A stretch of DNA of 19,950 nt from a virus. Its lineage: Duplodnaviria > Heunggongvirae > Uroviricota > Caudoviricetes. Shown here piece after piece: positions 3,587-19,792 of this stretch. A model generated the notes under the pieces. The model had not been told where the DNA came from and made no database searches. It was given only the letters and a program-made list of their open reading frames with translations. The number at the start of each line of letters is the position of its first letter. The stretch's first letter is position 1. The position numbers were made by a program, and so were the translations under genes. The stretch lies in IMG/VR virus record IMGVR_UViG_2778261164_000003; one strand, given 5' to 3'.

Positions 3587-3930
3587 AATACCCTCATTAA
3601 ACTATCCTCTGTACTTTTTATAGCTCTTTCCATCACTTCCCGCAATCGTATCTCCACAACAGCGACCGCTTTATATAGCAATTTTCATAACTTCGATTAC
3701 AGCTCAAAACATGCGGTAACCGTGCCATAGTTATACCATTCAACGCCCTTACGCGGGCAGCCCCGCACGCCTGCCCGCTTCGCTTAACAGACTGGTTTTC
3801 ATGCATGCCATAAATCGTCTCAGATACCACCACACAAAGGTTTTCGCCTCAAAAAGGGTGCATAAGACTCATGCATTTTCATGCGCCATAGACATGCACT
3901 CATACGCTCTCAGGCCAGCCAGGGAAAAGG

Positions 3931-3960
3931 TGTTAAAAATCCCGGTACTCGACCGGGATT
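3931..3960 (-). terminator. Intrinsic terminator ending the satellite late operon
   Basis: Hairpin AATCCCGGT-ACTCG-ACCGGGATT. On the minus strand it is followed by UUUUUAACA, directly after the Ogr/Delta stop at 3981. Confidence 0.55.
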
Positions 3961-3980
3961 ACGTGGGCGTTTTTTTCTAA

Positions 3981-4253
3981 TCAGACAGGAATCTGCTGAC
4001 GGCTTGACAGTTTTGACGCGGAGCCATAGCGATTGAGCGTTTGCTGTTGTTTTACCGGGGGTTGTGATTTGTCTGGTTCCTGTTCATTGCGCCGGGGTTT
4101 CATGATTATCTTATCCACACTCTCCAGTGCCGTAAATGTGCAGGAACATTCCAGATTCTGGCACTGATACCACGAGCGTTTAACTGACGGAGCTTCATAG
4201 GCTGCTGTTCTGGCGTGTGCAACTGTACCGCATTCCGGACATTTAAGTGCCAT
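3981..4253 (-). CDS. Ogr/Delta-family zinc-finger late-gene transcriptional activator
   Basis: MALKCPECGTVAHARTAAYEAPSVKRSWYQCQNLECSCTFTALESV matches the P2 Ogr C-x2-C...C-x4-C zinc-finger pattern (CPLCQHAAHART...HQCQNVNCSATF). Track start 4262 is GTG; ATG at 4253 has an AGGAG Shine-Dalgarno. Confidence 0.85.
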   Translation of the reverse strand: MALKCPECGTVAHARTAAYEAPSVKRSWYQCQNLECSCTFTALESVDKIIMKPRRNEQEPDKSQPPVKQQQTLNRYGSASKLSSRQQIPV

Positions 4254-4258
4254 TAATA

Positions 4259-4810
4259 TCACTCCTGTATATCGTTAATGTCATTCAGGCGTTGCTGAAA
4301 ACGCAGATGTTGTGCCGGGGTGTAAGAACCCTGGCAATCACGAATCATCCCGGGGTCAGGCATCAAACCGGATTCATCCAGGATCTCACGATAATCCCCA
4401 GCAATTTCAGGCGGTGTTATTGCCAGCTGGCGAACCAGAGCACTGCGTAATATACGGGACGCAACGTCAACCCCTCCGCGCCCCTTCAGGAACGGAGCCA
4501 GTGCAGATGTCAGGGCTGCCCCATTCGCCTGCATAAAATTGCTGAGAGCGGCTTCTGTGCAGGCCTCCATCAGTAAATGCTGCGAGTAAATGCATTCGCG
4601 CGCAGCACAGTTAATTTGCCATTTCAGCACATCCAGACGTTCCCGCAGTAATTCGAGCTGTCGGGCATAATCTGCTGGTTTTTCTGTGGCAGCGAGGAGA
4701 GATGTTATCTGTTGTTCAACGGCTTTTCGGCTCTCATTATGTCCGGCCCACAGAATGCGGGCATTCCGAAAACTGGTAAGTGCCTGGTCAGGCGTGCCTC
4801 GGGCCGTCAT
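4259..4810 (-). CDS. psu: Psu-like protein (polarity suppression / capsid decoration), 183 aa
   Basis: Blocks LDVLKWQINCAAREC, NFMQANGAALTSALAPFL and FTPAQ resemble P4 Psu as recalled from memory. ATGA start/stop overlap with the upstream gene. Confidence 0.6.
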   Translation of the reverse strand: MTARGTPDQALTSFRNARILWAGHNESRKAVEQQITSLLAATEKPADYARQLELLRERLDVLKWQINCAARECIYSQHLLMEACTEAALSNFMQANGAALTSALAPFLKGRGGVDVASRILRSALVRQLAITPPEIAGDYREILDESGLMPDPGMIRDCQGSYTPAQHLRFQQRLNDINDIQE

Positions 4811-5550
4811 ACTGCTTTCTCCTTCTCAGCAAGTTCCTGACGAACCTTAATTTTATGCATAGCTGCCGGAGAGAGTTGATTACTGAAATCCAGACGCGCC
4901 GCATAATCCGGGGCAACTCCCGCCAGTTTAAACACCGGGTCCTGCTCAGGCATCGCATCGTTAGCCAGAGCCGGTCTGGTGATATGTTTATGAATAAAGT
5001 CTTTCAGCACTGTGTCCGGGTCATTAACTGAATTCACCACACCCACAACGGCACTGGCTTCCCGGCCCATTGTGGATTTAAGCAGGCTCAGCGTCTGAAT
5101 AAGCGCTTTTCCATGCGACTGCATAAAATCCTCCCAGATTTGTTTTGCGCGAATATCCACAAGAATGTTATGCGCGTGGATATACTTTCCGGCTAATTCT
5201 GCAGCTTTCTGCGGCAAAAGTGCATTTTCGCTTTCCTGAGCCGCCAGCAGCTCATCAAAATCCTCAAGCGTTTCTCGTCCCAGCGCAATTTCCGTGCGCA
5301 GTTTTTTCATTTCCTTTGAGACCACGCCCTGACTTTCACGAAACAGCGTGCGCCACTCCTCATTCAGTGTGTTCGTCGTGGCTTCCATTTCAGCGCGACG
5401 CTGGCGGATTGTCGCAATATTATCCGCTGCCGCTTTCTGCTGACGACGTGCTTCAAGCCATGCGTTTCTGGCTGTGTTCATGGTTTCCAGTGCCCGCTGC
5501 GTTACAGCCGGAAAAGTGGAAAGGTTGTTATTTACTGCGGTATTGTTCAT
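4807..5550 (-). CDS. Sid-like external capsid scaffold protein (Psu paralogue), 247 aa
   Basis: Psu-like blocks (AWLEARRQQ, IWEDFMQSHGKALIQTLSLL) in a 247-aa protein, close to P4 Sid length. Position upstream of psu. AGGAGA Shine-Dalgarno before ATG at 5550. Confidence 0.45.
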   Translation of the reverse strand: MNNTAVNNNLSTFPAVTQRALETMNTARNAWLEARRQQKAAADNIATIRQRRAEMEATTNTLNEEWRTLFRESQGVVSKEMKKLRTEIALGRETLEDFDELLAAQESENALLPQKAAELAGKYIHAHNILVDIRAKQIWEDFMQSHGKALIQTLSLLKSTMGREASAVVGVVNSVNDPDTVLKDFIHKHITRPALANDAMPEQDPVFKLAGVAPDYAARLDFSNQLSPAAMHKIKVRQELAEKEKAV

Positions 5551-5584
5551 GACTTCTCCTGTCGGGTTGGTTCGTTACGTCAAT

Positions 5585-5640
5585 TGTGTCGTGGCTGACA
5601 CAAGCACACTATCGGTGTTCAGTGTGTGGTGGCTGGCACA
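5585..5640 (-). promoter_or_regulatory. Two TGT-N12-ACA dyads (5585..5602 and 5623..5640): candidate Ogr/Delta-activated late promoter
   Basis: TGTgtcgtggctgacACA and TGTgtggtggctggcACA lie 38 bp apart, 35-90 bp upstream of the Sid-like start. P2/P4 late promoters carry a TGT-N12-ACA activator site. Confidence 0.45.
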
Positions 5641-5728
5641 ACGGGCGCTTGCGGTTATTCAGACGTGGCTATGAAAGCCAGCCAGATAAAAATGCCCTCT
5701 GTTTCAGTCTGCTTTATGTCCCTGATGC

Positions 5729-5916
5729 GGTGGAACAGGTGAAACATGTGTTACAGCTTTGTTTTATAAGACATTTATATACACTGCACCGGTGGAACAT
5801 CGCGGGTAACAAGGTGGAACAGCGGATTGGCTGGCGTTACATCTGTTCCACCTCACTATTTCAGAAGGTGGAACAGGTTCAGCCCTGTAAAATACGGTTG
5901 TTCCACCTGTTTCACC
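5729..5916. repeat. Iteron cluster, candidate replication origin (P4 ori/crr-like)
   Basis: Eight copies of GGTGGAACA or its complement TGTTCCACC (with GGTGAAACA variants) at 5729, 5738, 5791, 5813, 5844, 5867, 5899 and 5908, in both orientations. Resembles the P4 type I iteron TGTTCACC bound by alpha protein. Lies immediately 3' of the primase gene. Confidence 0.55.
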
Positions 5917-5950
5917 TGTTACCCTTAATAAATAAGACTCACGCAAAGCC

Positions 5951-8623
5951 TTAACCCGGCACCTCGCTGTTGAAGACATAGAGCCTGCGGGGATTCATCT
6001 CTGGCGGGCGAATGGTTGTCTGGTGTTTGCCATCAGTGGAGGGCAGCAGGTATCCACGATCTGCGCACAGACGCGCCACCTTGCGCGGGTCAAATCCCCT
6101 GCAGATTTCTTTCCAGCCGGACGGCATGACATAGAACGTAGTGACAGCTTCCGTGCCCTGCGCGGTACTGCCTTTCTCCACCCTGCGCCAGCCCACCATA
6201 TTGCCGGGGCGGTTGCGCTCGTCATACCAGTCTGCAAAGCGGCTGTACTGATTCGCGGTGAAGAAACTGCGAACCTGCTCCAGTGCGGCGATATCTTCCT
6301 GATTGGCGGTGTGCCCGCGATCTTTCAGCCATGCGTTCAGGCAGACGCGGGTTGCCCGCAGTGCTTCACCCTCAGGCCAGCCGGTGATACCCAGACGGGT
6401 TGCCAGTTCACCTGCCATCGCCACCAGAGCAAAGCGGTTCACAGCCCGGCCCACCTGATTGCCTGCATCTTTCGGAGTCAGGGCGGCAGCATATTCCTTC
6501 ATCAGCGATTTTGCCTGTGCCGTTAGTCCGTTAAGATCAGCGGTCAGTGCTTTCAGCCACTCCCGGAACGGCGAACCGTAGTAGCAGGACGTGGCCCATT
6601 CAAGATGCTCTGCCAGAGCCTTGCCGCTGTCGAAGCCGTGCAGCTCCTCAAAAACGCCAAACTTCCCGGAATCGCTGGGGATCTGGATCATCCTGACTTC
6701 CATCCCGGCAAAAGTACGCTCACCGGCCTTTGCCGCATGTTCGGTCAGAGACAACTCGCCAGTTGAAAAGAACAACAGGCGCCACTGCTTACGGGTACGC
6801 AGCTCACCGTCCGTACCGGCACGGCCCTTGCCCTGACCGTTTGCCAGCATGTAGGCGATATTGCCTGCCTCGCGTCCGTCAACTTCCCGGATCTCATCAA
6901 GCATCATGGCGGCATCGTTGCGGCGGCTGGCGCATCCCTCCAGCGCGTTGCCGGTGGCCCGCCATGTCTGCCAGTAGTCAGGCCCGCCGCAGACGGAGGT
7001 TGCCGCTTTCATGGTGGTGGTCTTACCGTCTGTCGATTCCCCTTTGAGGTGGTAGCCGCCGCCGTCCATACCAACCAGCCGTAACAGTGGTGCAGCAAAG
7101 GCCAGGCTGACAGCAAATGCCACGCGGGAGTTGCCGGTACAGTAGCGGGATACATGCTCCCGCCATTCCTCTGTTGTGCCCGACACGCGGAAATCACGCC
7201 CCTGCACGGAAGTGGTCTGGAGAATGACACCCTCTGCACCTTCACCGCTGACCTCATCCTGCAGGACGTAAACCTGACCATGCCAGCCAGTACGACTGAC
7301 GCAGGTCACGCGGCGTTCCGGTTTACACAGTGAGATATATTCCATCAGGCGTGCGCGTGCCTCACCGGTGGTGCTGATATAAGACAGCCCGTTAACCAGC
7401 AGTACCCGGCGCAGTTCCTCACCACTGCCGCTCAGCATTTCCATCGGCATCGCCCAGCGGCGACACTCACCCCACGTATCTTCCCATTCCAGCAGTCGTC
7501 CGAAGTTACCGCCATCGGCATCGCAGGTGATTGCCGTCACGCGCAGCGGGCTGCATATTTTGACGTTCTGGATCTCCGTCTCACCGTTGCGCTGTACCTG
7601 CTTTTCATACCAGAGATATTCCTGGGTAAGACGGAACCCGTGCGGCAGTTGCGTGCGGCCTTCCCCGCACAGTACCAGACCGTTGCGAAAGGCTTCACGG
7701 GCACGGGTAATACCGTGCTCCCGATGAAAGTCATTCCAGTCAGCCTTAATCTCTCCTGGTGGCAGCGTCATCCAGCCGCCAACAGCTTTTGCCGCCCGTT
7801 CAGCAAAGGCTCTGCCGGGATTCTCACCTCCGTCCTGAAAATCGTTATCACCGGCGATGATAATTTTTACCTCAGGCCAGCGTGCCCGCAGCGACTGCGC
7901 CACATTGGGCAGGTTGCCCGCAGATATGGCAGCCACTACGCATCCGGCAGTGAGCTGACTTACCGTCAGCGCCGTAGCGTAACCTTCGGTAATCACCACC
8001 TGTACCGGTGGTTCAGACGGTAACGGGCTGAGCGACACAAACGCGCCTTTCATCGTGCTGCCGGGCAGTATGCTTTTTTCACCCGTCGGGGCGATAAGCT
8101 GTGCACCAGTCACGGCTCCGGTGTTGGTCGTGAGTGGTAACAGCAGGGAACCGGCAGGAAAATCCTTACCGCTGATATGCTGCACGCTTCCGGTCAGAGA
8201 GGCCGGGTATCCGGCGAACCCTTTTCCTGTCAGATAGGCGCTTTCTCCCGTGTGGCTCTCTTTCATCAGCGCCGCCACGGTAAGACCCATGTCGCGTTTA
8301 GGGGCTTTTTGTCTGGCAGGCTTAACAGGCAGTTCCTGCACATCCGGCACATTAAGCACCTGCGCCACCTCCTGCGCAGCCTTTCTGATGCTGTAACCGG
8401 TTACGAGCTTAACCAGATCCAGACCGTCACCATTGCCACACTGGCTGCAGATCCACGTCCCGCGCCCGTCAAGGTCATCAAGGCGAAAACGATCCTTGCC
8501 CCCACATTTCGGGCAGGGACCGTGCCTGCCGTTTTCAGGTACATCAATACGCAGCATCTGGAGAATAACGGGCCATTTCCCCCGTGCAGCGGCTGAAATC
8601 TGCGTAACCGTCTGTATTGTCAT
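5951..8623 (-). CDS. P4 alpha-type bifunctional primase-helicase, 890 aa
   Basis: N-terminal zinc-binding CPKCGGKDRF...CSQCGNGDG, Toprim IIIAGDNDF, P-loop GESTDGKTT. GGGGGA Shine-Dalgarno before the ATG. Confidence 0.85.
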   Translation of the reverse strand: MTIQTVTQISAAARGKWPVILQMLRIDVPENGRHGPCPKCGGKDRFRLDDLDGRGTWICSQCGNGDGLDLVKLVTGYSIRKAAQEVAQVLNVPDVQELPVKPARQKAPKRDMGLTVAALMKESHTGESAYLTGKGFAGYPASLTGSVQHISGKDFPAGSLLLPLTTNTGAVTGAQLIAPTGEKSILPGSTMKGAFVSLSPLPSEPPVQVVITEGYATALTVSQLTAGCVVAAISAGNLPNVAQSLRARWPEVKIIIAGDNDFQDGGENPGRAFAERAAKAVGGWMTLPPGEIKADWNDFHREHGITRAREAFRNGLVLCGEGRTQLPHGFRLTQEYLWYEKQVQRNGETEIQNVKICSPLRVTAITCDADGGNFGRLLEWEDTWGECRRWAMPMEMLSGSGEELRRVLLVNGLSYISTTGEARARLMEYISLCKPERRVTCVSRTGWHGQVYVLQDEVSGEGAEGVILQTTSVQGRDFRVSGTTEEWREHVSRYCTGNSRVAFAVSLAFAAPLLRLVGMDGGGYHLKGESTDGKTTTMKAATSVCGGPDYWQTWRATGNALEGCASRRNDAAMMLDEIREVDGREAGNIAYMLANGQGKGRAGTDGELRTRKQWRLLFFSTGELSLTEHAAKAGERTFAGMEVRMIQIPSDSGKFGVFEELHGFDSGKALAEHLEWATSCYYGSPFREWLKALTADLNGLTAQAKSLMKEYAAALTPKDAGNQVGRAVNRFALVAMAGELATRLGITGWPEGEALRATRVCLNAWLKDRGHTANQEDIAALEQVRSFFTANQYSRFADWYDERNRPGNMVGWRRVEKGSTAQGTEAVTTFYVMPSGWKEICRGFDPRKVARLCADRGYLLPSTDGKHQTTIRPPEMNPRRLYVFNSEVPG

Positions 8624-9003
8624 ACTTCCCCCTGATACAACGTCACACCGGTACTGCAGAAGTCATCAAAGGCCGCCGGAAGCGTGCGGTACATCTCCGC
8701 CATCACTTCACAGCCGCGCGCGGTCAGTACCGGCGGCGCGGTCAGCAGTGACGGCTCCAGCATGTCAGTCAGCAGTGCCAGCGCGGCAGCGGCGCCCTGT
8801 GCTTCGCCGTACTCGTTAATCAGTACGCACTCGATATGCAGCGCAATGGCCATTTCAATACGCTCCACCGTCAGGCTGTGCGGACCATACTGATCACTGC
8901 CAGTTTCGTTCAGCATTTTCTGCCGCCATGCTGAAGCAATAGCCCGCCGGTAAAGCGCGGTGGTCATTTCTGCCGGGAAAATGGAAACCTGCGGCTGGTT
9001 CAT
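8620..9003 (-). CDS. Hypothetical protein, 127 aa, translationally coupled to primase
   Basis: ATGA overlaps at both ends (9003/9000 and 8623/8620). No motif recognised. Confidence 0.5.
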   Translation of the reverse strand: MNQPQVSIFPAEMTTALYRRAIASAWRQKMLNETGSDQYGPHSLTVERIEMAIALHIECVLINEYGEAQGAAAALALLTDMLEPSLLTAPPVLTARGCEVMAEMYRTLPAAFDDFCSTGVTLYQGEV

Positions 9004-9284
9004 CTGGCACCTCCTTCAATCAGTGCGCAGCTGTGTGCAATATCCGTCAAATCTGCCAGCAGGTACTCCATCAGCGCGGCGACACCATGCGCACAGCCAG
9101 TGTCCAGTGCTCCGGCCTGAGACGGGTATTCAGAAAAGAGAAGCTGGAGCATGTCGCAGGCATTTCTTGCGCGGGTCAGCTTTCCGAAACTGTCCTCTGA
9201 CAACCCATAGGCAAAAACACCGGTATTGTGTTTTTCAGGCAAAGTGTGGCCCTGAGCACCGTTGTGCCCGTTTGAAATATTCAT
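9000..9284 (-). CDS. Hypothetical protein, 94 aa
   Basis: ATG start, operon position, ATGA overlap with the downstream ORF. Confidence 0.45.
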   Translation of the reverse strand: MNISNGHNGAQGHTLPEKHNTGVFAYGLSEDSFGKLTRARNACDMLQLLFSEYPSQAGALDTGCAHGVAALMEYLLADLTDIAHSCALIEGGAR

Positions 9285-9315
9285 CGTGGATTACTCCGTT
9301 TTCAGCGGTATTGTG

Positions 9316-9675
9316 TCAGAGAAACTTTGAATAGTGACCGTCATCAGGCTCAGCAGAACGCCATATGCTACGCTCCCGCCAGCGGATAAATAGCACAGAC
9401 GGATGCAGTGTCAGCGGGCCGGAACCACTACCGCCTGCAGGAGCTGGTGCAGGCTTAAAGAGCGGTACATCAAACAGGCGCGTATATCGCTGTTCAAACC
9501 ATGCCAGAGGGCAGGAAGAAAGCTGGTTGTCGCTGTCATGACGTATCAGCACTTCACAGCTGAATTCAGGATTAACCAGCGCCACAGAGGGCGAGGCTTC
9601 TATTAATCGGATAATCGTGACCGTCCAGCCACGTTCATGCTGCCAGCGTTCGCCGGGATGCGGATAATTACGCAT
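9316..9675 (-). CDS. Hypothetical protein, about 119 aa
   Basis: Track start 9705 is TTG. The first ATG (9675, MRNYPHPG) overlaps the stop of the small upstream ORF (ATGCGTAA). Confidence 0.4.
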   Translation of the reverse strand: MRNYPHPGERWQHERGWTVTIIRLIEASPSVALVNPEFSCEVLIRHDSDNQLSSCPLAWFEQRYTRLFDVPLFKPAPAPAGGSGSGPLTLHPSVLFIRWRERSIWRSAEPDDGHYSKFL

Positions 9676-9844
9676 GTTCACCTCCGCAGGGAATGCGCCC
9701 GGCAAAGCTCAGTACATAGTCCGGGGCAAGTCTGCGCCGCGCTGACCGCTCGTTATCTGCGGTGATCCTTAACATCACAGGACGGGCATTGCGTTGACTG
9801 CGGTTGATCGCCGCAAATAACCAGGTACACTTCTGTTTAGCCAT
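9668..9844 (-). CDS. Small hypothetical protein, 58 aa (below the ORF-track cutoff)
   Basis: MAKQKCTWLFAAINRSQRNARPVMLRITADNERSARRRLAPDYVLSFAGRIPCGGEHA. Its stop overlaps the next gene's start. Confidence 0.35.
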   Translation of the reverse strand: MAKQKCTWLFAAINRSQRNARPVMLRITADNERSARRRLAPDYVLSFAGRIPCGGEHA

Positions 9845-9933
9845 CTTCGTTACCTCTTATAACGGTTGGTTAAATGCCCGATTTGTGTTCCCGCACAATC
9901 GGGCATTGCTTTTACAAGCGAACTATACTTACA

Positions 9934-9977
9934 ATGGTAATTACCATGTAGTCATCATATTCTAGGGTAATTACCAT
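9934..9977. promoter_or_regulatory. Twin palindromic operators ATGGTAATTACCAT / GGGTAATTACCAT
   Basis: The perfect palindrome GGTAATTACC occurs twice (9936..9945 and 9966..9975), 30 bp centre to centre. The second copy overlaps the ATG of the Arc-like gene. Confidence 0.5.
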
Positions 9978-10149
9978 GTCAACACCACAAGAGAAACGTT
10001 CTCCACCATTCCAAATGCGTCTTACCGACGATTTTAGGTTGCAACTCGAAAACGAAATGCGCAAAGATGGAGATAGCGCGTTGGCAACTTGGATTAAAAG
10101 AATTTTACGCAAAGAACTCCAATCACGCGGGATTGACCCTAAAGGCTAA
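9976..10149 (+). CDS. Arc/MetJ-type ribbon-helix-helix DNA-binding protein, 57 aa (absent from the ORF track)
   Basis: MSTPQEKRSPPFQMRLTDDFRLQLENEMRKDGDSALATWIKRILRKELQSRGIDPKG. The FQMRL...ENGrS-like beta-strand/helix pattern is typical of Arc-like repressors. Confidence 0.6.
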   Translation: MSTPQEKRSPPFQMRLTDDFRLQLENEMRKDGDSALATWIKRILRKELQSRGIDPKG

Positions 10150-10181
10150 TCAGTTAAATATTACTAACTATCAATTAAGGC

Positions 10182-10472
10182 TTAGGGAGTAGGTGATAAT
10201 CTATTCCCTTTATTAATTGCTCTTGCCTTATTTCTCATCCCCTCAAACTGTTGACCTGAGTTTTCTTCAAACCCATCTCGCCACTTATAATAATCAGCAG
10301 CGCGCCATCGTGACATCCGACCTATTTTTATAGGTTTTGGAAAGCGATTCAGAGAAATCAATCGATAAATCCATTTATCACTTAATAAACAATCGGAAGT
10401 AATAAACTTCATATCGATCAGAGAATCCATTGAAGGTCGTTGCAAAGTAGTATTATCATGTTTAGATAACAT
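10182..10472 (-). CDS. AlpA-family phage regulatory protein (HTH, excisionase-like), 96 aa
   Basis: YRLISLNRFPKPIKIGRMSRWRAADYYKW fits the AlpA signature (FPKPIKIG-R...W). GGAGAA Shine-Dalgarno before the ATG. Confidence 0.55.
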   Translation of the reverse strand: MLSKHDNTTLQRPSMDSLIDMKFITSDCLLSDKWIYRLISLNRFPKPIKIGRMSRWRAADYYKWRDGFEENSGQQFEGMRNKARAINKGNRLSPTP

Positions 10473-10597
10473 TCATCATTCTCCGTTTATCTAAGTCTAT
10501 TGGCTTCAACACGGAAAATTAAAACATAGGTTATAAATGAGAAAAATGTGACTAATGAAAAAAATTCAAAATCATTAGCCACAACAATTGTTAATAT

Positions 10598-11422
10598 TTA
10601 GTTAAACTTAATGTTTTTCATGCAACTACGTAGCAAACTAACAACAGTATCATAGCTCAAAGGCGGTTCTCCGGTCTTAGGCCAGAACTCACTGGCATGT
10701 TGAAAAAGATAATCAGCTATCGCTGCTGGACTCTCTCTTCTTAGCCTCATATCACGATGATAGAGCGAAATAATAGCCATGAGTATTTCAGCTCGAGGAA
10801 CAGCATGTTTTTGTTTTTGCGCCTCAGATTGTGATTTATATTTATTGGCGTTTTTTATCCGCTTTTGTTCGCATAAGACTATATCAATGAATTTTTGAAT
10901 CTGTACCTTTGTAATCCACAAAACCTCAAAAAGATAATAATTTTCTTTTTCATCATAATTTACATAAAGAATTACCTTACAATTTATATTAGGCGTACCC
11001 GCCAGTAGAAAATGAATAGGCCAGGAATCCGGTTGCCCCTCATGCTTAACTAACAGATCTTTATATTCATAATCAACAGCCCATAAACCGGATATGAAGC
11101 ATCGAATAAAACCATTTTTATCAATTAAATTATCTTCATCAGGGATTCTTATAGAACTTAAGTCTGACAACATAATATTGCCATTTCTATCTCGTGGTAA
11201 ATATTTCAGATTAGATAAGAACTCATCTATTTGACCATCAATCTTCAAACCACATGAAACATCATACTCATCATCATGGAATTCCATGCATAGCTCTACA
11301 TCTCGTTCTCTGGCAAACCAGAGTATATCCTTTTCACTACAACCAATTTTTTCTGAAGCTTCATCCAACTGGTAGTAATCTCTGAGCAGAGAATCAGTAT
11401 TATTAATTTTTAAAATATTCAT
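10598..11422 (-). CDS. Hypothetical protein, 274 aa, AT-rich cargo gene coupled to the integrase
   Basis: Its ATG overlaps the integrase stop (ATGA). Composition is strongly AT-rich relative to neighbours. No catalytic motif recognised. Confidence 0.6.
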   Translation of the reverse strand: MNILKINNTDSLLRDYYQLDEASEKIGCSEKDILWFARERDVELCMEFHDDEYDVSCGLKIDGQIDEFLSNLKYLPRDRNGNIMLSDLSSIRIPDEDNLIDKNGFIRCFISGLWAVDYEYKDLLVKHEGQPDSWPIHFLLAGTPNINCKVILYVNYDEKENYYLFEVLWITKVQIQKFIDIVLCEQKRIKNANKYKSQSEAQKQKHAVPRAEILMAIISLYHRDMRLRRESPAAIADYLFQHASEFWPKTGEPPLSYDTVVSLLRSCMKNIKFN

Positions 11423-12609
11423 TTATGAGTACCAATTTGCTCAGATAAATAATTAGCATACCATTGCATCATTTCTCTTCTCCCTTCGAGATATTGGGCA
11501 TGGTTATAAATTCCACGAATAGAGTTTTTGTCCGAATGAGCAAGCTGGGTTTCAATCCAAGCGCTGTTAAATCCTTTCTCATGTAGGATTGTACTCATCG
11601 TATGCCTGAAACCATGCCCCGTAACACGCCCTGCATATCCAATACGTTTAAACACCTGATTAATGCTTGCTTCACTCATAAATTTGCTGGGATCGTTGCG
11701 TCCAGGGAACATCAGCGGGTAGTTCCCAGTTAGTTCTTTCAAACTTTTGAGATGGGATAATGCTTGTTTTGACAACGGGACAATATGGCTCCTACGCATT
11801 TTCATACGTTCTTTTGGGATCTCCCACACCGCATTATCAAAATCCACCTCTCGCCACTCACCTGCTCGTAGTTCTCCAGTTCGTAGACCTGTCAGGATAA
11901 GTAAATGCGCCCCCAACAATACAATTGGACTTCCTGAATAAGAATTAAGGGCATTAAAGAACTCCGGTAGTTCGTTGGCTTTGAGGAATGGATAGTGGAC
12001 TGCTTCATGTCCTTGCATCGCACTGGCAAGATCCGGTGCCGGATTGTAGATTGCCCTACCCGTTACGATGGCATAGCGAAAAACTTCACCGCATCGCTGA
12101 CGGACTTTCTTCGCTTTCTCCATAGCGCCTCGAGCTTCTATCAACCTCAGAACTTCAAGCAGTTCAAGGGGCTGAATATCAGCTATAGGTCTGTGCCCAA
12201 TATGCGGGAAAATGTCTTTCTCGAATGCCTCAATGATGTCGGAAGCATAGCCCTCAGACCATTTGGGTGATTTCATTTTGTGCCACTCTAACGCCACTTC
12301 TCTGAATGGGTTAAGTGTCTCACTCGCTGCATTTAAAGCCTGCTTTTTGGCTTTTTTGACTTCGCCGGGATCTTCACCTGCTGCGAGTAGTTTCTTCGCG
12401 TCTTCTCGTTTTTGTCTGGCATCAGCAAGTGTGACTGTTGGATAAACACCAAAGGACAATCGTTTCTCTTTACCAGCAAAACGGTATTTCATACGCCAGT
12501 AACGCGAGCCATTAGGTTCGACCTGAAGGTATAGGCCACCTCCATCAAACAGCTTGTAGCTCTTCTCTTTTCCTTTCGCAGCTTCAACCTTGCGGGCATT
12601 CAGCATCAT
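11419..12609 (-). CDS. int: P4-type tyrosine integrase
   Basis: N-terminal KLFDGGGLYLQV...YWRMKYRF arm-binding region and C-terminal catalytic HGFRHT...RGIYNHAQY. Track start 12678 is TTG; tandem ATG ATG at 12609 with AGGAAA upstream. Confidence 0.9.
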   Translation of the reverse strand: MMLNARKVEAAKGKEKSYKLFDGGGLYLQVEPNGSRYWRMKYRFAGKEKRLSFGVYPTVTLADARQKREDAKKLLAAGEDPGEVKKAKKQALNAASETLNPFREVALEWHKMKSPKWSEGYASDIIEAFEKDIFPHIGHRPIADIQPLELLEVLRLIEARGAMEKAKKVRQRCGEVFRYAIVTGRAIYNPAPDLASAMQGHEAVHYPFLKANELPEFFNALNSYSGSPIVLLGAHLLILTGLRTGELRAGEWREVDFDNAVWEIPKERMKMRRSHIVPLSKQALSHLKSLKELTGNYPLMFPGRNDPSKFMSEASINQVFKRIGYAGRVTGHGFRHTMSTILHEKGFNSAWIETQLAHSDKNSIRGIYNHAQYLEGRREMMQWYANYLSEQIGTHK

Positions 12610-12685
12610 TGGGGGCACATTTCCTAGACCGAACAGAACATGCCCCTGATTGTGCCCCCAACCGCGTGTTGATTTCAAGAGACAA

Positions 12686-12758
12686 GGGTTGACCTCAAAC
12701 GTATGAAAACAACGTAATATATATGTTTTTAAATGATTTTGTTGATGTGGGTTGACTT
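12686..12758. promoter_or_regulatory. Direct repeats GGGTTGACCT / GGGTTGACTT between int and att core
   Basis: Two 10-mers at 12686..12695 and 12749..12758, 63 bp apart, upstream of int. Candidate integrase arm-type sites or promoter -35 elements. Confidence 0.3.
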
Positions 12759-12773
12759 GGGAAAACTAGGTGA

Positions 12774-12818
12774 TGGTGCCGATAATAGGAGTCGAACCTA
12801 CGACCTTCGCATTACGAA
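12774..12818 (-). other. Attachment-site core: 3' 45 nt of a tRNA-Thr(CGU) gene, not an intact tRNA
   Basis: Minus strand reads TTCGTAATGCGAAGGTCGTAGGTTCGACTCCTATTATCGGCACCA: anticodon loop with CGT, T-arm GGTTCGACTCC, acceptor 3' half and CCA. It matches my memory of E. coli thrW. The 5' half of the tRNA is absent from the flanking sequence. Confidence 0.7.
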
Positions 12819-13234
12819 TTATAAGAATCCGCTTCTAATTCAAAGCATTACCCCATCAACACTGCGCTCACACGTCCCACCACATCAAAACATGTAAAGC
12901 CTTGCAAGTCATTGCGAGGCCTTATGTGTCTCAGTTTTGTCCCACCTTGTATTACGACTTGCATAGCCAATGAAGATAAATGTGACGACAAACGGCGCAG
13001 CAGTCTTCTTTTCCTTCATACTTTCCCCACCCAGCATGCATACCTTCTACCATAACTGTAGTTAATGTCTGTTATGAGCGAAAAGCGGTCCTTAAATACA
13101 ATTTTCATTGATAACGCCGTCTTGTTGCTATTGAAGACATTATCAACATCATTGTGTTTTTACTTATATTTGAAGGAGGGCTATTCAAGGGATTGCCCCC
13201 TTTTAACAAAAATTCCACCAGAACAGTAGGTCTG

Positions 13235-14929
13235 CTAATTGGTCTCTATAATTGAGCTTAATTCGTTAATGAGCAGGTGAGGGCTCATTTGAGTTAAGTC
13301 ATACTGCCTCCCCAATTTCTCTTGCATTCCTCCTCGTATTTTCTTTAATAAATATTTGCCTTTAATGTTATTAACTGATGTCGGAACTTGGTTTCCAAAT
13401 AATGTTAGGTGTCGAGGGCATGCTTCCAGTCTCCCCTTATATAAATTATATTTAATCACCTCTCTTTTGGATTGAAAATCAGACTGGATGACAACATGAT
13501 TTTGTGCGGCTATATCAGTAATCCATGTTTGTATATCTTGCACAGAAGAGCCTGTAACATGAGATAAATGCTCTATTCTGGTAAAATAACTCTCAATATC
13601 ACTACCTTCAGTAATGAATGGAATGGCGCCACCTCTTTGAATTTCTGCTTTTACTATATCTACTTCTTCATCAGTCATAAAATCGCGGTCACGATGAATT
13701 ATAACCTTGCAATTAGGGGACATTTCCTTAAGAAGGTCAGCAGATACAATTGCTCCTTGCACATTTGTGCATGTTTTGTAGCTATAGACTGCAGTTCTCT
13801 CCATATCAAAACCATTATATTGTAAAAGGGCCTTGAAATATTTTTTATCTCTATCTTCAGTGAGAAATATATTCTCCACAACCCCTTCAGTTACTCTATC
13901 CAAGTCATTTAAAGCTCCTAAATCTAAGAACATTGATATTTTGTCCAAATCCATGCCTTGATTCTGAACATTACCATCTTTCATCCAAATAAAATTTGCC
14001 TCTCCATACAATGAATCAATTATATGTTTGCTATGAGTGGAAAGTATAACTTGAGTTTCTGATTTGTTATTTTCTGATATTAAACTCAATGAGTCAGTGA
14101 GAATATATTGATTATCAGGGTGAAGATGAGAATCCGGTTCATCTAAGAGTAATAATTTAGGTTTGAAATATACTATATATGCAAATATCTGTAATGTTTG
14201 AAGTAATCCAGTTCCCGCCAACTCGATAGGGTAATTTTTCCCACTTGCATTTTCTTTAAAATTAACGGTTAGATAAGTATCTTTATCCTCTTTGAAATCC
14301 ACTTCGATTTCTATATCTGGAAATACAACTTGCAGCATGCTATTGAGATTTACCAAGTGGTTATCTTTGTTCAGATAGTATATGACATTCCTTAAGTATA
14401 AATTTGCATCACCACTTGCCACTCCTCTTCTAACTATTGCTGGCGATTTTAATTCTTCCTTCTGTGAGATACCAGCCAGACCAGGAACATATATACTAAA
14501 GAGATTTTTTTCATCGGTGATTACTGAACCGAAGCCGGTATAATCACCGGTTCTTTCACATGACATATTTCCATGATTTCGTCCCTTAGATATAATTATA
14601 TTGTATTCTAATTGTCGACCAACAAGATCATCATATCCAAAAAGACTCAACACACTTTGATTGCCAGGCGACCTCGAATTCTTATAAGGTTCGCCGTTCT
14701 TTAAAACAGTGAAGTCTGGGGTGATATTATACATTAAAAGTTCAGTAGAGAATGTTTGTTGACTTTGTTGCCGAGCGGCAATAGCTGCGCATACTGAAAA
14801 ATGTATAGCTTGCAGAATACTGCTCTTACCTGAACTATTTGCCCCTACTAATACATTTATATCACTAAGGGTGATTTCTGCTGTGTCAATTTTTTTGAAT
14901 TTACTAACAGACAAAGACTTAATGAACAT
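13235..14929 (-). CDS. OLD-family ATP-dependent nuclease (ABC-type ATPase plus Toprim), standalone class-1 type like phage P2 Old
   Basis: Walker A LVGANSSGKSS, Walker B/H-loop LLLLDEPDSHLHPDNQ and LSTHS; C-terminal Toprim-like NIFLTEDRD and VIIHRDRDF. Length comparable to P2 Old and GajA. No UvrD-like partner follows. Track start 14947 is TTG; ATG at 14929 has an AAGGAA Shine-Dalgarno. Confidence 0.7.
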   Translation of the reverse strand: MFIKSLSVSKFKKIDTAEITLSDINVLVGANSSGKSSILQAIHFSVCAAIAARQQSQQTFSTELLMYNITPDFTVLKNGEPYKNSRSPGNQSVLSLFGYDDLVGRQLEYNIIISKGRNHGNMSCERTGDYTGFGSVITDEKNLFSIYVPGLAGISQKEELKSPAIVRRGVASGDANLYLRNVIYYLNKDNHLVNLNSMLQVVFPDIEIEVDFKEDKDTYLTVNFKENASGKNYPIELAGTGLLQTLQIFAYIVYFKPKLLLLDEPDSHLHPDNQYILTDSLSLISENNKSETQVILSTHSKHIIDSLYGEANFIWMKDGNVQNQGMDLDKISMFLDLGALNDLDRVTEGVVENIFLTEDRDKKYFKALLQYNGFDMERTAVYSYKTCTNVQGAIVSADLLKEMSPNCKVIIHRDRDFMTDEEVDIVKAEIQRGGAIPFITEGSDIESYFTRIEHLSHVTGSSVQDIQTWITDIAAQNHVVIQSDFQSKREVIKYNLYKGRLEACPRHLTLFGNQVPTSVNNIKGKYLLKKIRGGMQEKLGRQYDLTQMSPHLLINELSSIIETN

Positions 14930-14976
14930 TTTCTTTTCCTTTTTCAATGAAAGGTGTAAAACTTTAACTCATCATT

Positions 14977-15261
14977 TTAGTTGTTAACATTCAAAATCAT
15001 AAACTGATTCTCTATTTTACCAATGAATAGCAGTCCTATCAGAGTAAAAATAGTGTTAGATATTTTTCTTACATCTGAATCTGAGAAATATTCGGATTCT
15101 TTATAGCAATTATTCCATATGTCGAGTTCTCTAAAATCATAAGCTAAATGAGCAATTTTTCCCCAATCTTCATTTACTATATGCTCAGCCATTGTAAAAA
15201 AATCACTCTTAGTCGGAATGTCTATTCTCATTGTTACTTGGCCTATTTTTTCATTGCTCAC
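14977..15261 (-). CDS. Possible small ORF upstream of the OLD nuclease (doubtful)
   Basis: 94 codons from a GTG. No convincing Shine-Dalgarno at the GTG or at either internal ATG. May instead be the 5' UTR of the OLD gene. Confidence 0.2.
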   Translation of the reverse strand: MSNEKIGQVTMRIDIPTKSDFFTMAEHIVNEDWGKIAHLAYDFRELDIWNNCYKESEYFSDSDVRKISNTIFTLIGLLFIGKIENQFMILNVNN

Positions 15262-15458
15262 ATATATAACTATATGATATTTATATTAAAACTCCAACAT
15301 TAAGTTTCGGCTTTCTTCAAGTAAACTACATAGCACGATGTAAGCAACTTCCGCTTTTGGCACATAGCAGTCCTAGAGATACTGGCGTAAAGCCATGGAG
15401 GATCGGTGGGAGGAGGTAAAAATCCTCTCATGCAAAAAATACGCAAAATCGATAACAG

Positions 15459-15541
15459 TTGGAAATCATTCAATACTCGCACTATCGGAAGTTCACCAGC
15501 CAACCGCAGCACGTTCTTGCATACGACATGCCTGCGGTTTC
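15459..15541 (+). repeat. Hairpin-containing repeat, copy A
   Basis: About 83 bp, roughly 87% identical to copy B. Contains CCGCAGCACG-loop-(C)ATGCCTGCGG followed by TTT. Confidence 0.7.
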
Positions 15542-15684
15542 AACTCCCGCCAGCTCCACCAATCATGATTGGACGGTTAAGGACAACACCAATAAAAACA
15601 GGAAGTTAGCAGTCTCAGCAGGACACCGACCAGACGGTGAGGAGACAAAAAAGGATACGCAAAGGAGCCGCGGCTCCCGAGTGA

Positions 15685-15720
15685 CAAAAAAGCCCGCTTA
15701 TGCGGGCTTTTTTGTTTTTT
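15685..15720. terminator. Bidirectional intrinsic terminator after the Bro-N gene
   Basis: AAAAAAGCCCGC-TTAT-GCGGGCTTTTTTGTTTTTT: GC stem flanked by an A-run and a T-run. Confidence 0.7.
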
Positions 15721-15730
15721 TCCCTCAAGC

Positions 15731-16492
15731 TCACTGACGTGTTCTTGCCTCAACTACTTTCTGGTATATAGCGATAGCTTCATCAACCAAAGCTAATGGA
15801 TAGCAAGAATTTATATTCAATCCGGAGGGGCACTTAATTCTTTCTGCTCCACGTTCACTACGCAATTTTTCACACCATTGCCAAAGTTCCTCAACTGAAT
15901 AGGTATCCAAACCTAACTCCATCAATCGTTGAGGAACACTTCTGAACTGAGACAAATCTCTTAAACTTTCTAACGAGTTAACTTTTAGTTCAACTTGGTT
16001 TACTCTACTTTCTAACTCTTCACGTTTTTCTATTTCCATTACCAATGCTTGAACCGTCTGCTGCAGACTGTTAGCAAAAGCACTCAGTTCTGAACGTTCT
16101 TGTTTAGGTGGCGGAGGATATACACCAAATTCACGAATAGACGGAAGGACCTGATGAAAAAGCCAGCGTTGGAATTTTTTCCCCGCAGCAGTAGTATCCT
16201 GAGCAAGTACTCTATATAGACCTGGTTCAGTAAGAAATACCTCAGAGATAGTTTCACCATCCACGACAAGAGAAACATTCCTAAACTCATCTGGATCTAA
16301 AGTTTTTATTACCGCTCTTATTACAGTGAGCAAGCTTTGAGAAGTCTTTCCATCCAGTTTTCTGTTCTCAGCAGAAAGCGTTCTTAGCACATCTGAAAGT
16401 GAAACAAAAATCTGCCCTTTTTCATTCATGCTACGGATATAATTTTCTCCACACTCTCCTTCGTAGCATAATTGTAACAAATTCTTTTGCAC
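15731..16492 (-). CDS. Bro-N domain protein with C-terminal coiled-coil region (antirepressor-like), 253 aa
   Basis: N-terminal YIRSMNEKGQIFVSLSDVLRTL and FQRWLFHQVLPSIREFGVY match the Bro-N pattern. GTG start at 16492 with AGGAGG 5 nt upstream. Confidence 0.6.
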   Translation of the reverse strand: MQKNLLQLCYEGECGENYIRSMNEKGQIFVSLSDVLRTLSAENRKLDGKTSQSLLTVIRAVIKTLDPDEFRNVSLVVDGETISEVFLTEPGLYRVLAQDTTAAGKKFQRWLFHQVLPSIREFGVYPPPPKQERSELSAFANSLQQTVQALVMEIEKREELESRVNQVELKVNSLESLRDLSQFRSVPQRLMELGLDTYSVEELWQWCEKLRSERGAERIKCPSGLNINSCYPLALVDEAIAIYQKVVEARTRQ

Positions 16493-16770
16493 GCCATCCC
16501 CTCCTTTTTTTATGGATTATACATCCTATAAACATGTTGTCACCGAAAGGGAAAAGCATAAACCCAATTTATGTTCCACAAGATGTTCAAAAATCAAACA
16601 ACCATATAGCTGAGGAGCACAAAAGAGCAAAAGTTTACCAACCCCATATATCCATACAGCACATAAAATTGACACTACATGTGGTATTTTTTAAGTTACG
16701 CCTTGCACCATTTCATGATTTTATGTAGATTGTCATCACACGCTGAGATTAAAAAATTCTACAATTTTTG

Positions 16771-16799
16771 TTGATCTTGAGTTTGGTTTTTAGTATAAG
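16771..16799 (+). promoter_or_regulatory. Sigma70-like promoter for the HTH/peptidase operon
   Basis: TTGATC, 17-bp spacer, TATAAG, about 25 bp upstream of the ATG. Confidence 0.4.
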
Positions 16800-16825
16800 T
16801 GAGCATGGATTGTAGGAGGCGCAAC

Positions 16826-17176
16826 ATGGTAACTAGCTTTGGTAAGACTCTCAGAAAAATGAGAATAGACCGGGGTATGGTGCTCAAAAATATGGCTGAT
16901 CTGTTAGGCGTTAGTTCGGCTTACTTATCCGCCATTGAATTAGGCAAAAGAGCTATACCGGACTCATTAGTAAATACGATTGCAACAACTTTTGAGCTTA
17001 GCGGACAAGACATCATCAATCTCAAGAAACAGGCAGAGATTTCTCAACCGTCCATTAAGGTTGATATGTCGGATGCAAATGAGCAGAACAAAGAACTAAT
17101 GCTTGTTTTTGCTCGTAAATTTAAGGACCTGAGTCCAGAGCAACTCGATAAGCTTAATAAAATGTTAAAGGACTGA
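16826..17176 (+). CDS. XRE-family helix-turn-helix transcriptional regulator, 116 aa
   Basis: LKNMADLLGVSSAYLSAIELGKR HTH motif. AGGAGG 7 nt before ATG 16826 (track start 16799 is GTG). Confidence 0.85.
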   Translation: MVTSFGKTLRKMRIDRGMVLKNMADLLGVSSAYLSAIELGKRAIPDSLVNTIATTFELSGQDIINLKKQAEISQPSIKVDMSDANEQNKELMLVFARKFKDLSPEQLDKLNKMLKD

Positions 17177-17179
17177 ATA

Positions 17180-17713
17180 ATGATTGCGAAACGAGAACTT
17201 GGCCATCGCGTTTCACCTCTCAGCACCAGCATGATTAAATCATACGCTCATCGTCTGAGAGACGTTCTTCAGATATCAAATCACACATATCTGAGACTGG
17301 ATGTATTACTAGAAGGTCTTATGGCCTCAGAAAGCATTGAGCTAGAAATTGTTGAAGATCATGAACTGCCCAAACGCTATGCAGTGACTTATCCAGATAA
17401 GAACAAAATTGTTTTACAGCGATCTGTTTACGATGCAGTGTGCAATGGTGAGAACCATGCGAGATTCACTGTTGCGCATGAACTTGGTCATTTAGTCATG
17501 CATCGCAATCAAAGTATCTATGCACGTAATAAGACTAGTGGAGGGCATAAAATCTATGAAGACAGCGAATGGCAAGCAGATGTTTTTGCAAGCCACTTCT
17601 TAATTGACTCAAGACTAGTTTTGCCCACAATGACTGTTGAAGATATAAGCAAAACATTTGGTGTCAGTCAACAAGCGGCTGAAACCTGGATGAGAAAAAA
17701 TGCAAAAAGATAA
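17180..17713 (+). CDS. ImmA/IrrE-family zinc metallopeptidase, 177 aa
   Basis: HEXXH motif in TVAHELGHLVMH. Start lies 4 nt after the HTH stop, with AAAGGA Shine-Dalgarno. Confidence 0.85.
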   Translation: MIAKRELGHRVSPLSTSMIKSYAHRLRDVLQISNHTYLRLDVLLEGLMASESIELEIVEDHELPKRYAVTYPDKNKIVLQRSVYDAVCNGENHARFTVAHELGHLVMHRNQSIYARNKTSGGHKIYEDSEWQADVFASHFLIDSRLVLPTMTVEDISKTFGVSQQAAETWMRKNAKR

Positions 17714-17720
17714 CGAAAAA

Positions 17721-17743
17721 GCCAGCGAACCGCTGTCGCTGGC
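17721..17743 (+). terminator. Weak terminator-like hairpin after the peptidase gene
   Basis: GCCAGCGA-ACCGCTG-TCGCTGGC followed by TTCTCCT (poor T tract). Confidence 0.3.
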
Positions 17744-17838
17744 TTCTCCTATCGTAAGCAAATACGAAAAACTTGGCGGTTGTGAGTATACGCTTACCTT
17801 AGGTTTTGTCAACAGCGAAACTTTACAGGTAACACGAT

Positions 17839-17982
17839 ATGACCATTGAAAAAGCTGTATCTGAGGAATACATCACAATTTACCGTCCTTTTATTACGGT
17901 CAAAGGTAAACGGATCTTTGCTCGTCAAAAAGGCTTGGCAGCCTTTCCTATCAAAATTCCTGCCTCTAAGTATCGAGGATAA
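17839..17982 (+). CDS. Small hypothetical protein, 47 aa (absent from the ORF track)
   Basis: MTIEKAVSEEYITIYRPFITVKGKRIFARQKGLAAFPIKIPASKYRG. AGGTAA 8 nt upstream; followed 15 nt later by a terminator. Confidence 0.35.
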   Translation: MTIEKAVSEEYITIYRPFITVKGKRIFARQKGLAAFPIKIPASKYRG

Positions 17983-17996
17983 TCTTTGCTAATCTT

Positions 17997-18021
17997 AGGC
18001 CCTTTTCTAGGGCCTTTTATT
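17997..18021 (+). terminator. Intrinsic terminator after the 47-aa ORF
   Basis: AGGCCC-TTTTCTA-GGGCCT followed by TTTATT. Confidence 0.5.
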
Positions 18022-18133
18022 ACACTTCTGTTACGCGCACCACAGATAGAGTTTCAGCTAAAACTTTTGTTCATACCTAGGAGTCTGCTGACGAGTGGTT
18101 TGTTCACTAATAAACACGTAAAAACGGTAACGG

Positions 18134-18215
18134 CTGGACATCATTCAATATTCGCACTATTGGAAGTTCACCAGCCAGCCACAGCACGTTCTTGCATACA
18201 ACGTGCCTGCGGTTT
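18134..18215 (+). repeat. Hairpin-containing repeat, copy B
   Basis: About 82 bp matching copy A. Hairpin CCACAGCACG-loop-CGTGCCTGCGG followed by TTTTT. Confidence 0.7.
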
Positions 18216-18307
18216 TTGAGACCGGTCCGATCATCAAACGAAACATAAAATTAGCTCACACTATGAGGAAAAGTATCTTTTTTTACTATGTAAATTCAAA
18301 GAATTAG

Positions 18308-19177
<870 letters not shown>

Positions 19178-19197
19178 GTCTTTAAGTGATAAGCATA

Positions 19198-19239
19198 AAC
19201 CGCAGCACGATCTTCTTCCATACGACGTGCTACGGTTTC
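19198..19239. repeat. Hairpin-containing repeat, copy C; likely bidirectional terminator between convergent genes
   Basis: CCGCAGCACG-16nt-CGTGCTACGG (9 of 10 bp paired) matching the 3' part of copies A and B. Flanked by T-rich tracts on both strands. Sits between the GIY-YIG stop (19177) and the invertase stop (19238). Confidence 0.6.
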
Positions 19240-19792
19240 ATTTATCTCCGACCGGAAACTTCTTATACAGTGTCGATATACCAACATCATAGATGATCGC
19301 CACCTTCTGGCGAGGGACGCCTGATGCAATTAATCGCCCGGCCTGCGCCCATTGTTCTGGTGTAAGTTTGGGACGACGTCCACCAATTCGTCCCTGTGCG
19401 CGAGCAGCGTCCAGTCCAGCTTTTGTTCGTTCAACAATCAGTTCTCGTTCCATTTCAGCCAGGGCACCCATCATATGAAAGAAAAAACGCCCCATCGGTG
19501 TGCTGGTATCAATAGCATCCGTCAGGCTGCGAAAATTAACGCCACGTTCGCGCAACTCCTCAACCAGAATGACCAGATGCCGCATACTACGCCCCAGCCG
19601 ATCCAGCTTCCAGACAACCAGAGTGTCACCTACCGATAATGTCCTGAGCAGTTTTTTCAGTCCCGGCCTTTCGGACTTTGTACCGCTTATCTTGTCTTCA
19701 AAAATCAGCTCGCATCCTGCACAGTTCAGCGCATTACGTTGTAGATCTGTGTTCTGGTCATTTGTTGACACACGTACATAGCCAATAAGCAT
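19238..19792 (-). CDS. Serine DNA invertase of the Hin/Gin/Pin/Cin family, 184 aa
   Basis: MLIGYVRVSTNDQNTDLQRNAL...LVVWKLDRLGRS...MGRFFFHMMGALAEMERELIVERT...C-terminal HTH. Near-colinear with Hin as recalled. GGGAGA Shine-Dalgarno before ATG 19792 (track start 19828 is upstream). Confidence 0.9.
   Translation of the reverse strand: MLIGYVRVSTNDQNTDLQRNALNCAGCELIFEDKISGTKSERPGLKKLLRTLSVGDTLVVWKLDRLGRSMRHLVILVEELRERGVNFRSLTDAIDTSTPMGRFFFHMMGALAEMERELIVERTKAGLDAARAQGRIGGRRPKLTPEQWAQAGRLIASGVPRQKVAIIYDVGISTLYKKFPVGDK

Follow-up and report, generated by a model that had tools for sequence, protein, structure and literature searches.

A divergent gene between integrase and alpA in a P4-like satellite, a positional equivalent of the integrase-overlapping genes of Vibrio PICMIs

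The closest described counterpart of the gene considered here is iolg, the integrase-overlapping gene of the Vibrio PICMI satellites, which lies between the integrase gene (int) and alpA and overlaps int by ATGA (PMC10803314). Among PICMI subfamilies, 21 of 35 carry an iolg, four an icg (contiguous gene) and three neither; the overlap with int amounts to 1, 4 or 13 nt, ATGA being the most frequent form, and the iolg and icg genes belong to 13 unrelated families of unknown function (PMC10803314). In PICMI115, deletion of iolg abolishes helper-induced excision, packaging and transduction; int alone complemented a deletion of int, and the iolg deletion was complemented only by int and iolg together (PMC10803314). 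It has been proposed by the same authors that int and iolg are expressed constitutively and alpA upon phage induction, the three proteins forming an excision complex (PMC10803314).

We analysed the gene that follows int in a 19,950-nucleotide stretch of DNA (the window) from the IMG/VR virus record IMGVR_UViG_2778261164_000003; this gene is called X below. Over positions 78-12819, the window has 99.9% identity with the region of Escherichia coli WCHEC025970 adjoining tRNA-Thr (thrW) and proA; the identity to locus L001 stops inside the tRNA, and no complete tRNA was found in the window. The element is a P4-like satellite whose modules are arranged non-canonically: they run int-X-alpA-...-alpha-sid-psu-delta on one strand (3981-12609), the order int-psu-delta-sid-alpA-epsilon-alpha being that of 77% of Type A P4-like satellites (PMC8628076). 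The features on which the analysis draws are the following, with positions in the window:

300-3586, minus strand: DRT3a/b, identified by PADLOC
3981-5550, minus strand: sid, psu and ogr/delta
5951-8623, minus strand: alpha-type primase with TOPRIM and DUF927
coordinates not listed, minus strand: icd-like gene and small open reading frames; DUF5375 gene
9976-10149, plus strand: Arc/CopG-like small gene
10182-10472, minus strand: AlpA-like small wHTH regulator (Phage_AlpA, PHROG), the next gene downstream of X
10540-10583, minus strand: intrinsic-terminator-like hairpin with a 12-bp stem and a 13-nt loop, then UUUUUCU, 14 nt past the X stop
10598-11422 (stop 10598-10600), minus strand: X, coding sequence of 274 aa (open reading frame, homologues, dN/dS 0.12, AF2 pLDDT 78)
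10601-10909, minus strand: X residues 172-274, long basic helix and conserved C-terminal helical domain (dN/dS 0.03)
10910-11236, minus strand: X residues 63-171, hypervariable alpha/beta middle domain (identity 14%, dN/dS 0.24)
11237-11422, minus strand: X residues 1-62, conserved N-terminal beta-alpha-alpha-beta-beta domain, wHTH-like and acidic
11419-11422, minus strand: ATGA overlap of the X start (ATG, 11422-11420) with the int stop (TGA, 11421-11419)
11419-12609 (mechanical open reading frame to 12678), minus strand: P4-type tyrosine integrase of 396 aa (RefSeq), recognised by its domains
12774-12819, minus strand: 46-nt 3' fragment of tRNA-Thr (thrW), the att repeat bounding the satellite upstream of int

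The integrase carries the Pfam domains Arm-DNA-bind_3, Phage_int_M and Phage_integrase. An Rfam scan of the window returned no family, the P4 CI/C4 RNA included. The satellite has its hotspot at the end distant from int, between ogr/delta and the far att site; it is filled by the antiviral reverse-transcriptase pair DRT3a/DRT3b (PADLOC, E=1e-129 and 8e-204; GC content about 30%), in agreement with the published locations of defence cargo in P4-like satellites (PMC13586616; PMC8628076). The corresponding hotspot of L016, a sister satellite, contains a retron St85 system and a RipA-like gene instead. To the right of the tRNA fragment (12820-19950), the DNA differs from the reference satellite locus and encodes an AAA_15/AAA_21 ATPase (13235-14947; AriA/NsnB/Old-like by PADLOC), a 94-aa open reading frame, a Bro-N protein (15731-16492) and a LEM-3-like GIY-YIG protein (18353-19177); this part probably represents another element, integrated in tandem at that att site.

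Like the PICMI iolg, X is encoded on the same strand as int, immediately downstream of it and with a 4-nt ATGA overlap; its place, again as for iolg, is between int and alpA, in a small helper-dependent island whose primase gene lies downstream (13 of 13 contexts for X), and both slots are filled by many unrelated or very divergent versions. The two genes differ in their hosts, which are Enterobacterales and Neisseriales for X and Vibrionaceae for the PICMIs, and in the type of satellite, X residing in P4-like elements with sid/psu/delta, or in capsid-encoding ones, whereas the PICMIs are minimalist. Moreover, a requirement for excision has been demonstrated for the PICMI115 iolg alone. A genome scan for PICMI att repeats gave mostly chance matches, two of them with a nearby integrase (Photobacterium sagamiensis L056 and Xenorhabdus L026). 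Compared with one PICMI-like slot gene, the 202-aa icg of L056, X gave no HMM or hhalign match, this comparison covering L056 only. X is the positional equivalent of the PICMI iolg and, by proposal, its functional counterpart; judged against a single PICMI-like slot gene, it appears to be a sequence-distinct version of the integrase-overlapping gene. The link drawn here between X and iolg is positional, and the PICMI slot itself holds unrelated families. A sequence-only reading of this DNA had set its own proposal, an acquired cargo gene, against homology to an integrase-accessory or excision factor: position and organisation speak for such a factor (PICMI iolg, PMC10803314), sequence homology, with one slot gene compared, does not.

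The same reading had described a 274-aa open reading frame at 10598-11422 whose start overlaps the int stop, and the nucleotides bear this out: the int/X junction reads ...GGT ACT CAT AAA TGA ATA TT on the minus strand, so that the int stop and the X start have four nucleotides (ATGA) in common. The start codon is ATG, and M1 is kept across X homologues. Judged from the junction, the ATGA overlap shows translational coupling of X to int. In 10 of 14 family loci, X starts -8 to +4 nt from the int stop, and in the remaining four 29-183 nt from it; the X stop is 96-156 nt from alpA throughout. The difference in composition between the two genes, also pointed out in the sequence-only reading, is real (GC 34.4% and GC3 28% in X vs 45.4% and 41% in int), but the low-GC tract is not restricted to X: it extends over the 125-nt spacer between X and alpA (27%), alpA (36%) and the last third of int (41%), the alpha-primase operon having a GC content of 59%.

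Downstream of X, the hairpin has a dG of -15 kcal/mol (z -3.3), and a hairpin followed by a T-run is found at the equivalent place in L016, L002, L003 and L008, with differing sequences. In the alignment, four pairs are compensatory and 92.6% of cells are paired, vs 33-59% when the partner columns are slid; this covariation is suggestive, not decisive, because only six sequences were aligned. No strong promoter-like site was found ahead of X. It is thus supported by the sequence features that int and X would form one unit, closed by a conserved terminator, with X co-expressed with int; the overlap and the conserved terminator before alpA agree with expression together with int and outside the helper-induced early regulon, as in the iolg class. 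No sigma-70 consensus promoter was found ahead of alpA, which would fit an activator- or helper-dependent expression of this gene, as reported in Gram-negative PICIs (PMC6092414). The AlpA-like gene itself matches Phage_AlpA with E=4e-4, just under the Pfam cut-off, is an excisionase/regulator according to PHROG, and aligns with the AlpA-like genes located 3' of X in nine loci.

Several candidate regulatory sites surround this module. A conserved block (10496-10520, minus strand) that follows the terminator and precedes the alpA ribosome-binding site consists of ATGTTTTAAT, 6-7 nt and GTTGA; it is common to the window, L016, L002 and L003, in which AlpA is 83% identical and X only ~30%, and is a candidate site for AlpA autoregulation or helper response. 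Further downstream (9934-9982), two exact copies of GGTAATTACCATGT, 30 nt apart and each with the palindrome GGTAATTACC, overlap the best promoter-like site of the region (minus strand, TTGACA-17-TATGAT, 11/12 matches) as well as the start of the 57-aa Arc/CopG-like open reading frame (9976-10149, plus strand), and this pair looks like the putative operator/promoter switch of the leftward icd-to-primase operon. On the other side of int, there is a perfect inverted repeat of 11 nt, TTGGGGGCACA ... TGTGCCCCCAA, whose arms are 31 nt apart (12609-12661); it lies at the annotated start of int and immediately ahead of it, and partly overlaps a weak promoter-like site. In P4, int is reportedly repressed by Int and Vis, and the TTGGGGGCACA/TGTGCCCCCAA repeat may be a binding site of Int, AlpA or X for the autoregulation of int.

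Regarding the relatives of the protein, a word-indexed search of 5.8 billion proteins yielded 18 clusters of X homologues, none with a Pfam domain and, for those with an organism name, all from Enterobacterales; a second word-indexed protein search gave just two further, distant members, and a profile searched exhaustively against 1.84 billion representatives returned 44 matches only, mostly full-length (roughly 250-330 aa) plus some short fragments. Homologues reach ~20% identity, with hosts ranging from Enterobacterales to one betaproteobacterium. By these searches, the X family is a small orphan family, and a fast-diverging one. As the sequence-only reading had it, the gene is an unrecognised one: X has no match in Pfam, PHROGs, PADLOC or NCBIfam, and PDB sequence searches with full-length, N-terminal and C-terminal profiles gave noise only. 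The remote-homology and structure-prediction check that this reading had suggested led to an AF2 model (pLDDT 78) and to no homologous fold; with the model, a Foldseek search against PDB and BFVD gave nothing below E=0.3, hence no convincing match for the predicted fold.

The model has four parts, namely a beta-alpha-alpha-beta-beta unit (residues ~16-61), an alpha/beta middle (65-171), a long helix (172-202) and a C-terminal helical bundle (211-270). Among 32 divergent members, the N-terminal part has the consensus YYxLxEAAxxLGCxxxDxLHWA and the C-terminal one the motif ERHAxxRExVLxAAI...FWP..PPLS; mean pairwise identity is 31% in the N domain, 37% in the C domain and 14% in the middle domain, in which no residue is invariant in these 32 members. 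An enzyme is therefore unlikely, and we rejected this assignment; no conserved catalytic-type residues were found in X, in line with the absence of a catalytic motif stated in the sequence-only reading. X is thus shown to be a three-part protein of non-enzymatic appearance. Compared with the 93%-identical allele of E. coli L016, its overall dN/dS is 0.12, with values of 0.06 and 0.03 for the N and C domains and 0.24 for the middle one. X is a genuine gene under purifying selection, and a spurious open reading frame is rejected on the basis of dN/dS and conservation. The same measures bear on whether X could act mainly in cis, as a structural element whose coupled translation tunes Int levels or mRNA stability while the protein itself has little function. 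The tight overlap of the int stop and the X start agrees with such a role, as does the joint int/iolg complementation needed in PICMI115 (PMC10803314); with strong purifying selection, notably on the N and C domains, an architecture kept across ~20% identity and four loci in which int and X are separated by 29-183 nt, it is extremely improbable.

The N-terminal domain resembles the AlpA, Vis, TorI and Xis excisionases in its predicted beta-alpha-alpha-beta-beta topology and in its linkage to a tyrosine integrase, and its pattern Y-x-L-x-EAA-x-x-LG-x-x-x-x-D-hydrophobic recalls the HTH_17/excisionase fold (MerR-superfamily wHTH). However, X is three to four times larger than these excisionases, acidic instead of basic, and fails the Pfam and profile comparisons: HTH_17 is touched by only three of 32 members (E=0.023), no significant match to PF12728 or PF05930 was obtained, and neither a single sequence nor a profile of the N domain has similarity to AlpA (hhalign probability below 1%). 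A bona fide AlpA-like gene is, besides, already next door. The family is acidic, most members having a pI of 4.8-6.5 whereas the AlpA-like neighbours have a pI of 9.3-11.5; the net charge of the N domain is -10 in the X of the window (family mean -2.8), leaving it without a basic DNA-binding surface. Classical DNA binding is therefore doubtful despite the wHTH-like shape, and a protein-binding role of the N domain is at least as likely. A classical basic HTH repressor was rejected on the same ground.

Across the family, the order P4-type int, X, AlpA-like gene, small open reading frames and primase/helicase is found in 13 of 13 contexts (window/L001; L016; L002 and L003; Laribacter L004; L005-7; L008; L009/10; L011/12; L013/14; L017/18; L019/20; L021; L022), always with X on the strand of int and with a DUF927 or D5_N primase/helicase, Laribacter and metagenomic contigs included; in this int-X-alpA module, the terminator sits between X and the AlpA-like gene. 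This clade of int occurs in 84 complete E. coli genomes and is nearly complete in 80 of them; the X alleles of complete E. coli genomes add up to 79 (66 of the window type, 11 of the L002 type and two of the L003 type), and the alpA segment is found in as many genomes as the window-type X with which it co-occurs (66). The int-X-alpA module is joined to differing replication modules (L013 vs L014, L009 vs L010) and to differing hotspot cargo (DRT3 in the window, retron St85 in L016, Kiwa in L003), X being retained. By synteny, X is part of the backbone of an integration/regulation module (int-X-terminator-alpA) in a satellite lineage with P4-type integrases, and not random cargo. The sequence-only reading, which saw an acquired cargo gene expressed with int, was right as to co-expression (overlap, no strong promoter of its own, terminator hairpin), but cargo does not fit the 13/13 slot or the counts of 79 and 80; mapped across related satellites, X is retained between int and alpA and is not patchy cargo.

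Capsid-encoding relatives also have the int-X-alpA module: in L003 (5946-6950), L019 (8786-9790) and L017 (14251-end), a major capsid protein (P2-family, Phage_cap_P2, or Phage_capsid) replaces the annotated sid/psu pair. An ogr/delta-like gene is found in L003 and L019 as well, an Ash/epsilon homologue in L019 and the Kiwa defence system in L003. Many islands with a P4-type int and alpA are devoid of X, for example Xenorhabdus L026 and CP4-57, and Int and AlpA can therefore function without it. YfjH, encoded between intA and alpA in CP4-57 of K-12, was discarded as a counterpart of X, being unrelated and on the opposite strand. In two of 66 E. coli genomes, X is split by IS1 (NZ_CP138407.1, 4321441-4323042; NZ_CP128592.1, 3700871-3702472), the match consisting of two pieces over 1602 bp, under which an IS1 transposase is annotated. 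The integrated element can therefore persist when X is lost, and the disruptions are compatible with a mobility function dispensable to the host.

Dispensability to the host would equally suit an accessory anti-phage, anti-defence or satellite-exclusion factor riding on the expression of int, as would the AT-rich composition of X, its allelic replacement by recombination and its fast protein divergence, which are typical of conflict genes; satellites do carry defence genes (PMC9122126, PMC13586616). Such a role, toward which the sequence-only reading inclined, is nonetheless decidedly improbable. X matches no family among the PADLOC and NCBIfam defence models, with which DRT3a/b and the AriA/NsnB-like ATPase of the window score strongly, nor does Pfam give a defence match; no effector, TM or NTPase domain was found, and the variable middle domain is without conserved catalytic residues. 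X lies outside the defence hotspot, which is at the opposite end (DRT3), and tblastn searches of phage and plasmid collections gave no match. Its slot is strictly conserved in 13/13 contexts and over ~20% identity, whereas cargo is patchy. With the cargo found at the position of gop, beta and cII in the P4 hotspot, X does have in common a P4-like satellite, the proximity of int, a high AT content and exchange by recombination; unlike that cargo, it is a conserved, homologous slot-filler and not one of a set of variable, unrelated genes, and the hotspot is here at 300-3586 (DRT3), with a retron in L016.

The divergence of X follows a peculiar pattern. Between the window and L002/L003, Int is 95-97% identical, AlpA 83% and X 29-34% (aa), and the DNA similarity ends ~30-40 nt short of the 3' end of int to return within alpA; X thus does not co-vary with Int. 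Between L002 and L003, the proteins are 97% (Int), 100% (AlpA) and 58% (X) identical; the nucleotide identity is 93-100% in the flanks, 55-70% in X and 79-83% in the last 400 nt of int, and dS is saturated in X, 2.1 in the C-terminal part of int and 0.05-0.12 in the flanks, dN/dS being <= 0.09 throughout. A fourth allele, P0053, is ~21% identical to the X of the window and stands behind a similar integrase adjoining proA, that is, in the neighbourhood of thrW, in the capsid-encoding satellite L019. As judged from these patterns, the X alleles are old, purified classes moved by homologous recombination between near-identical flanks, in the manner of an immunity region. A recent foreign insertion or ongoing positive selection was rejected as the cause of the divergence, the pattern of dS, dN/dS and flanks being contrary to both. 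What the sequence-only reading called acquisition is hence true of the X allele, exchanged by recombination between conserved flanks, and not of the slot, which persists while it is the hotspot cargo that changes.

This pattern is also what makes one think of an immunity-like or helper-sensing gate analogous to the Stl of SaPIs: made with Int in the quiescent state, X would hold the alpA-driven programme off by binding AlpA, the AlpA promoter or Int, and would be freed when its middle domain binds a cognate protein of a helper phage or of a rival satellite, the different alleles being different induction or immunity specificities. Like Stl, X is adjacent to int and extremely divergent among islands with common integrases, and it combines a conserved HTH-like N-terminal part with a variable remainder. 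Deeply divergent alleles between near-identical flanks are found in phage immunity regions (compare L002 with L003), variability is highest in the middle domain, and X is directly upstream of alpA, whose promoter has no sigma-70 consensus; in addition, the P4 CI/C4 RNA is not in the window, and the repressor of Gram-negative PICIs and the helper route to alpA are not known (PMC6092414). We regard this gate as rather unlikely. X has the orientation of alpA, with a terminator between the two genes, whereas stl is divergently transcribed; X is not an HTH repressor divergent from a lytic operon, has no homology to Stl and occurs in Gram-negative hosts. Its wHTH-like domain is acidic (net -10; family pI ~5-6.5, AlpA 9.3-11.5), and AlpA is 100% identical between L002 and L003 although X is 58% identical. 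As the repressor of the replication operon, the Arc/CopG-like gene, with the twin palindromic operator over the strong leftward promoter (9936-9982), is a more obvious candidate, and the effect of deleting the PICMI iolg is a block of excision, not its derepression (PMC10803314).

By analogy with iolg, we tentatively favour X as a protein coupled to Int that serves the integration/excision switch in an accessory or specificity role, acting with Int and helper-induced AlpA, a proposal that is quite possible without being the expected outcome. Against it speak the purely positional character of the link to iolg, the independent divergence of X and Int, and the islands in which a P4-type int and alpA do without X. 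X would be produced together with Int in the integrated state; once the helper phage has switched on alpA, it would work with Int and AlpA to permit excision. It might do so as a protein-binding adaptor or specificity subunit and probably not as a classical DNA-binding repressor, because its wHTH-like domain is acidic, and the variable middle domain could set the specificity for its partner. In a more specific and quite unlikely version, X would be the specificity subunit of an Int, X and AlpA switch whose middle domain recognises a protein of a helper phage or a rival satellite, the cognate signal licensing excision. If this holds, the old alleles exchanged by recombination would amount to "induction/immunity types" among Gram-negative satellites, and helper sensing in alpA-type satellites would be explained.

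Integrase-overlapping genes were recognised in 2024 as essential, mechanistically opaque parts of the Vibrio PICMI satellites (PMC10803314), and a gene equivalent in position is now known in the P4-like satellites of E. coli and their relatives. Since E. coli with P2-type helpers has excellent genetics, the triggering of excision by Int, AlpA and a third protein becomes testable, and the same system could show whether the third protein confers helper specificity. More generally, the case of X calls for caution against labelling every AT-rich unknown gene beside a satellite integrase as "defence cargo".
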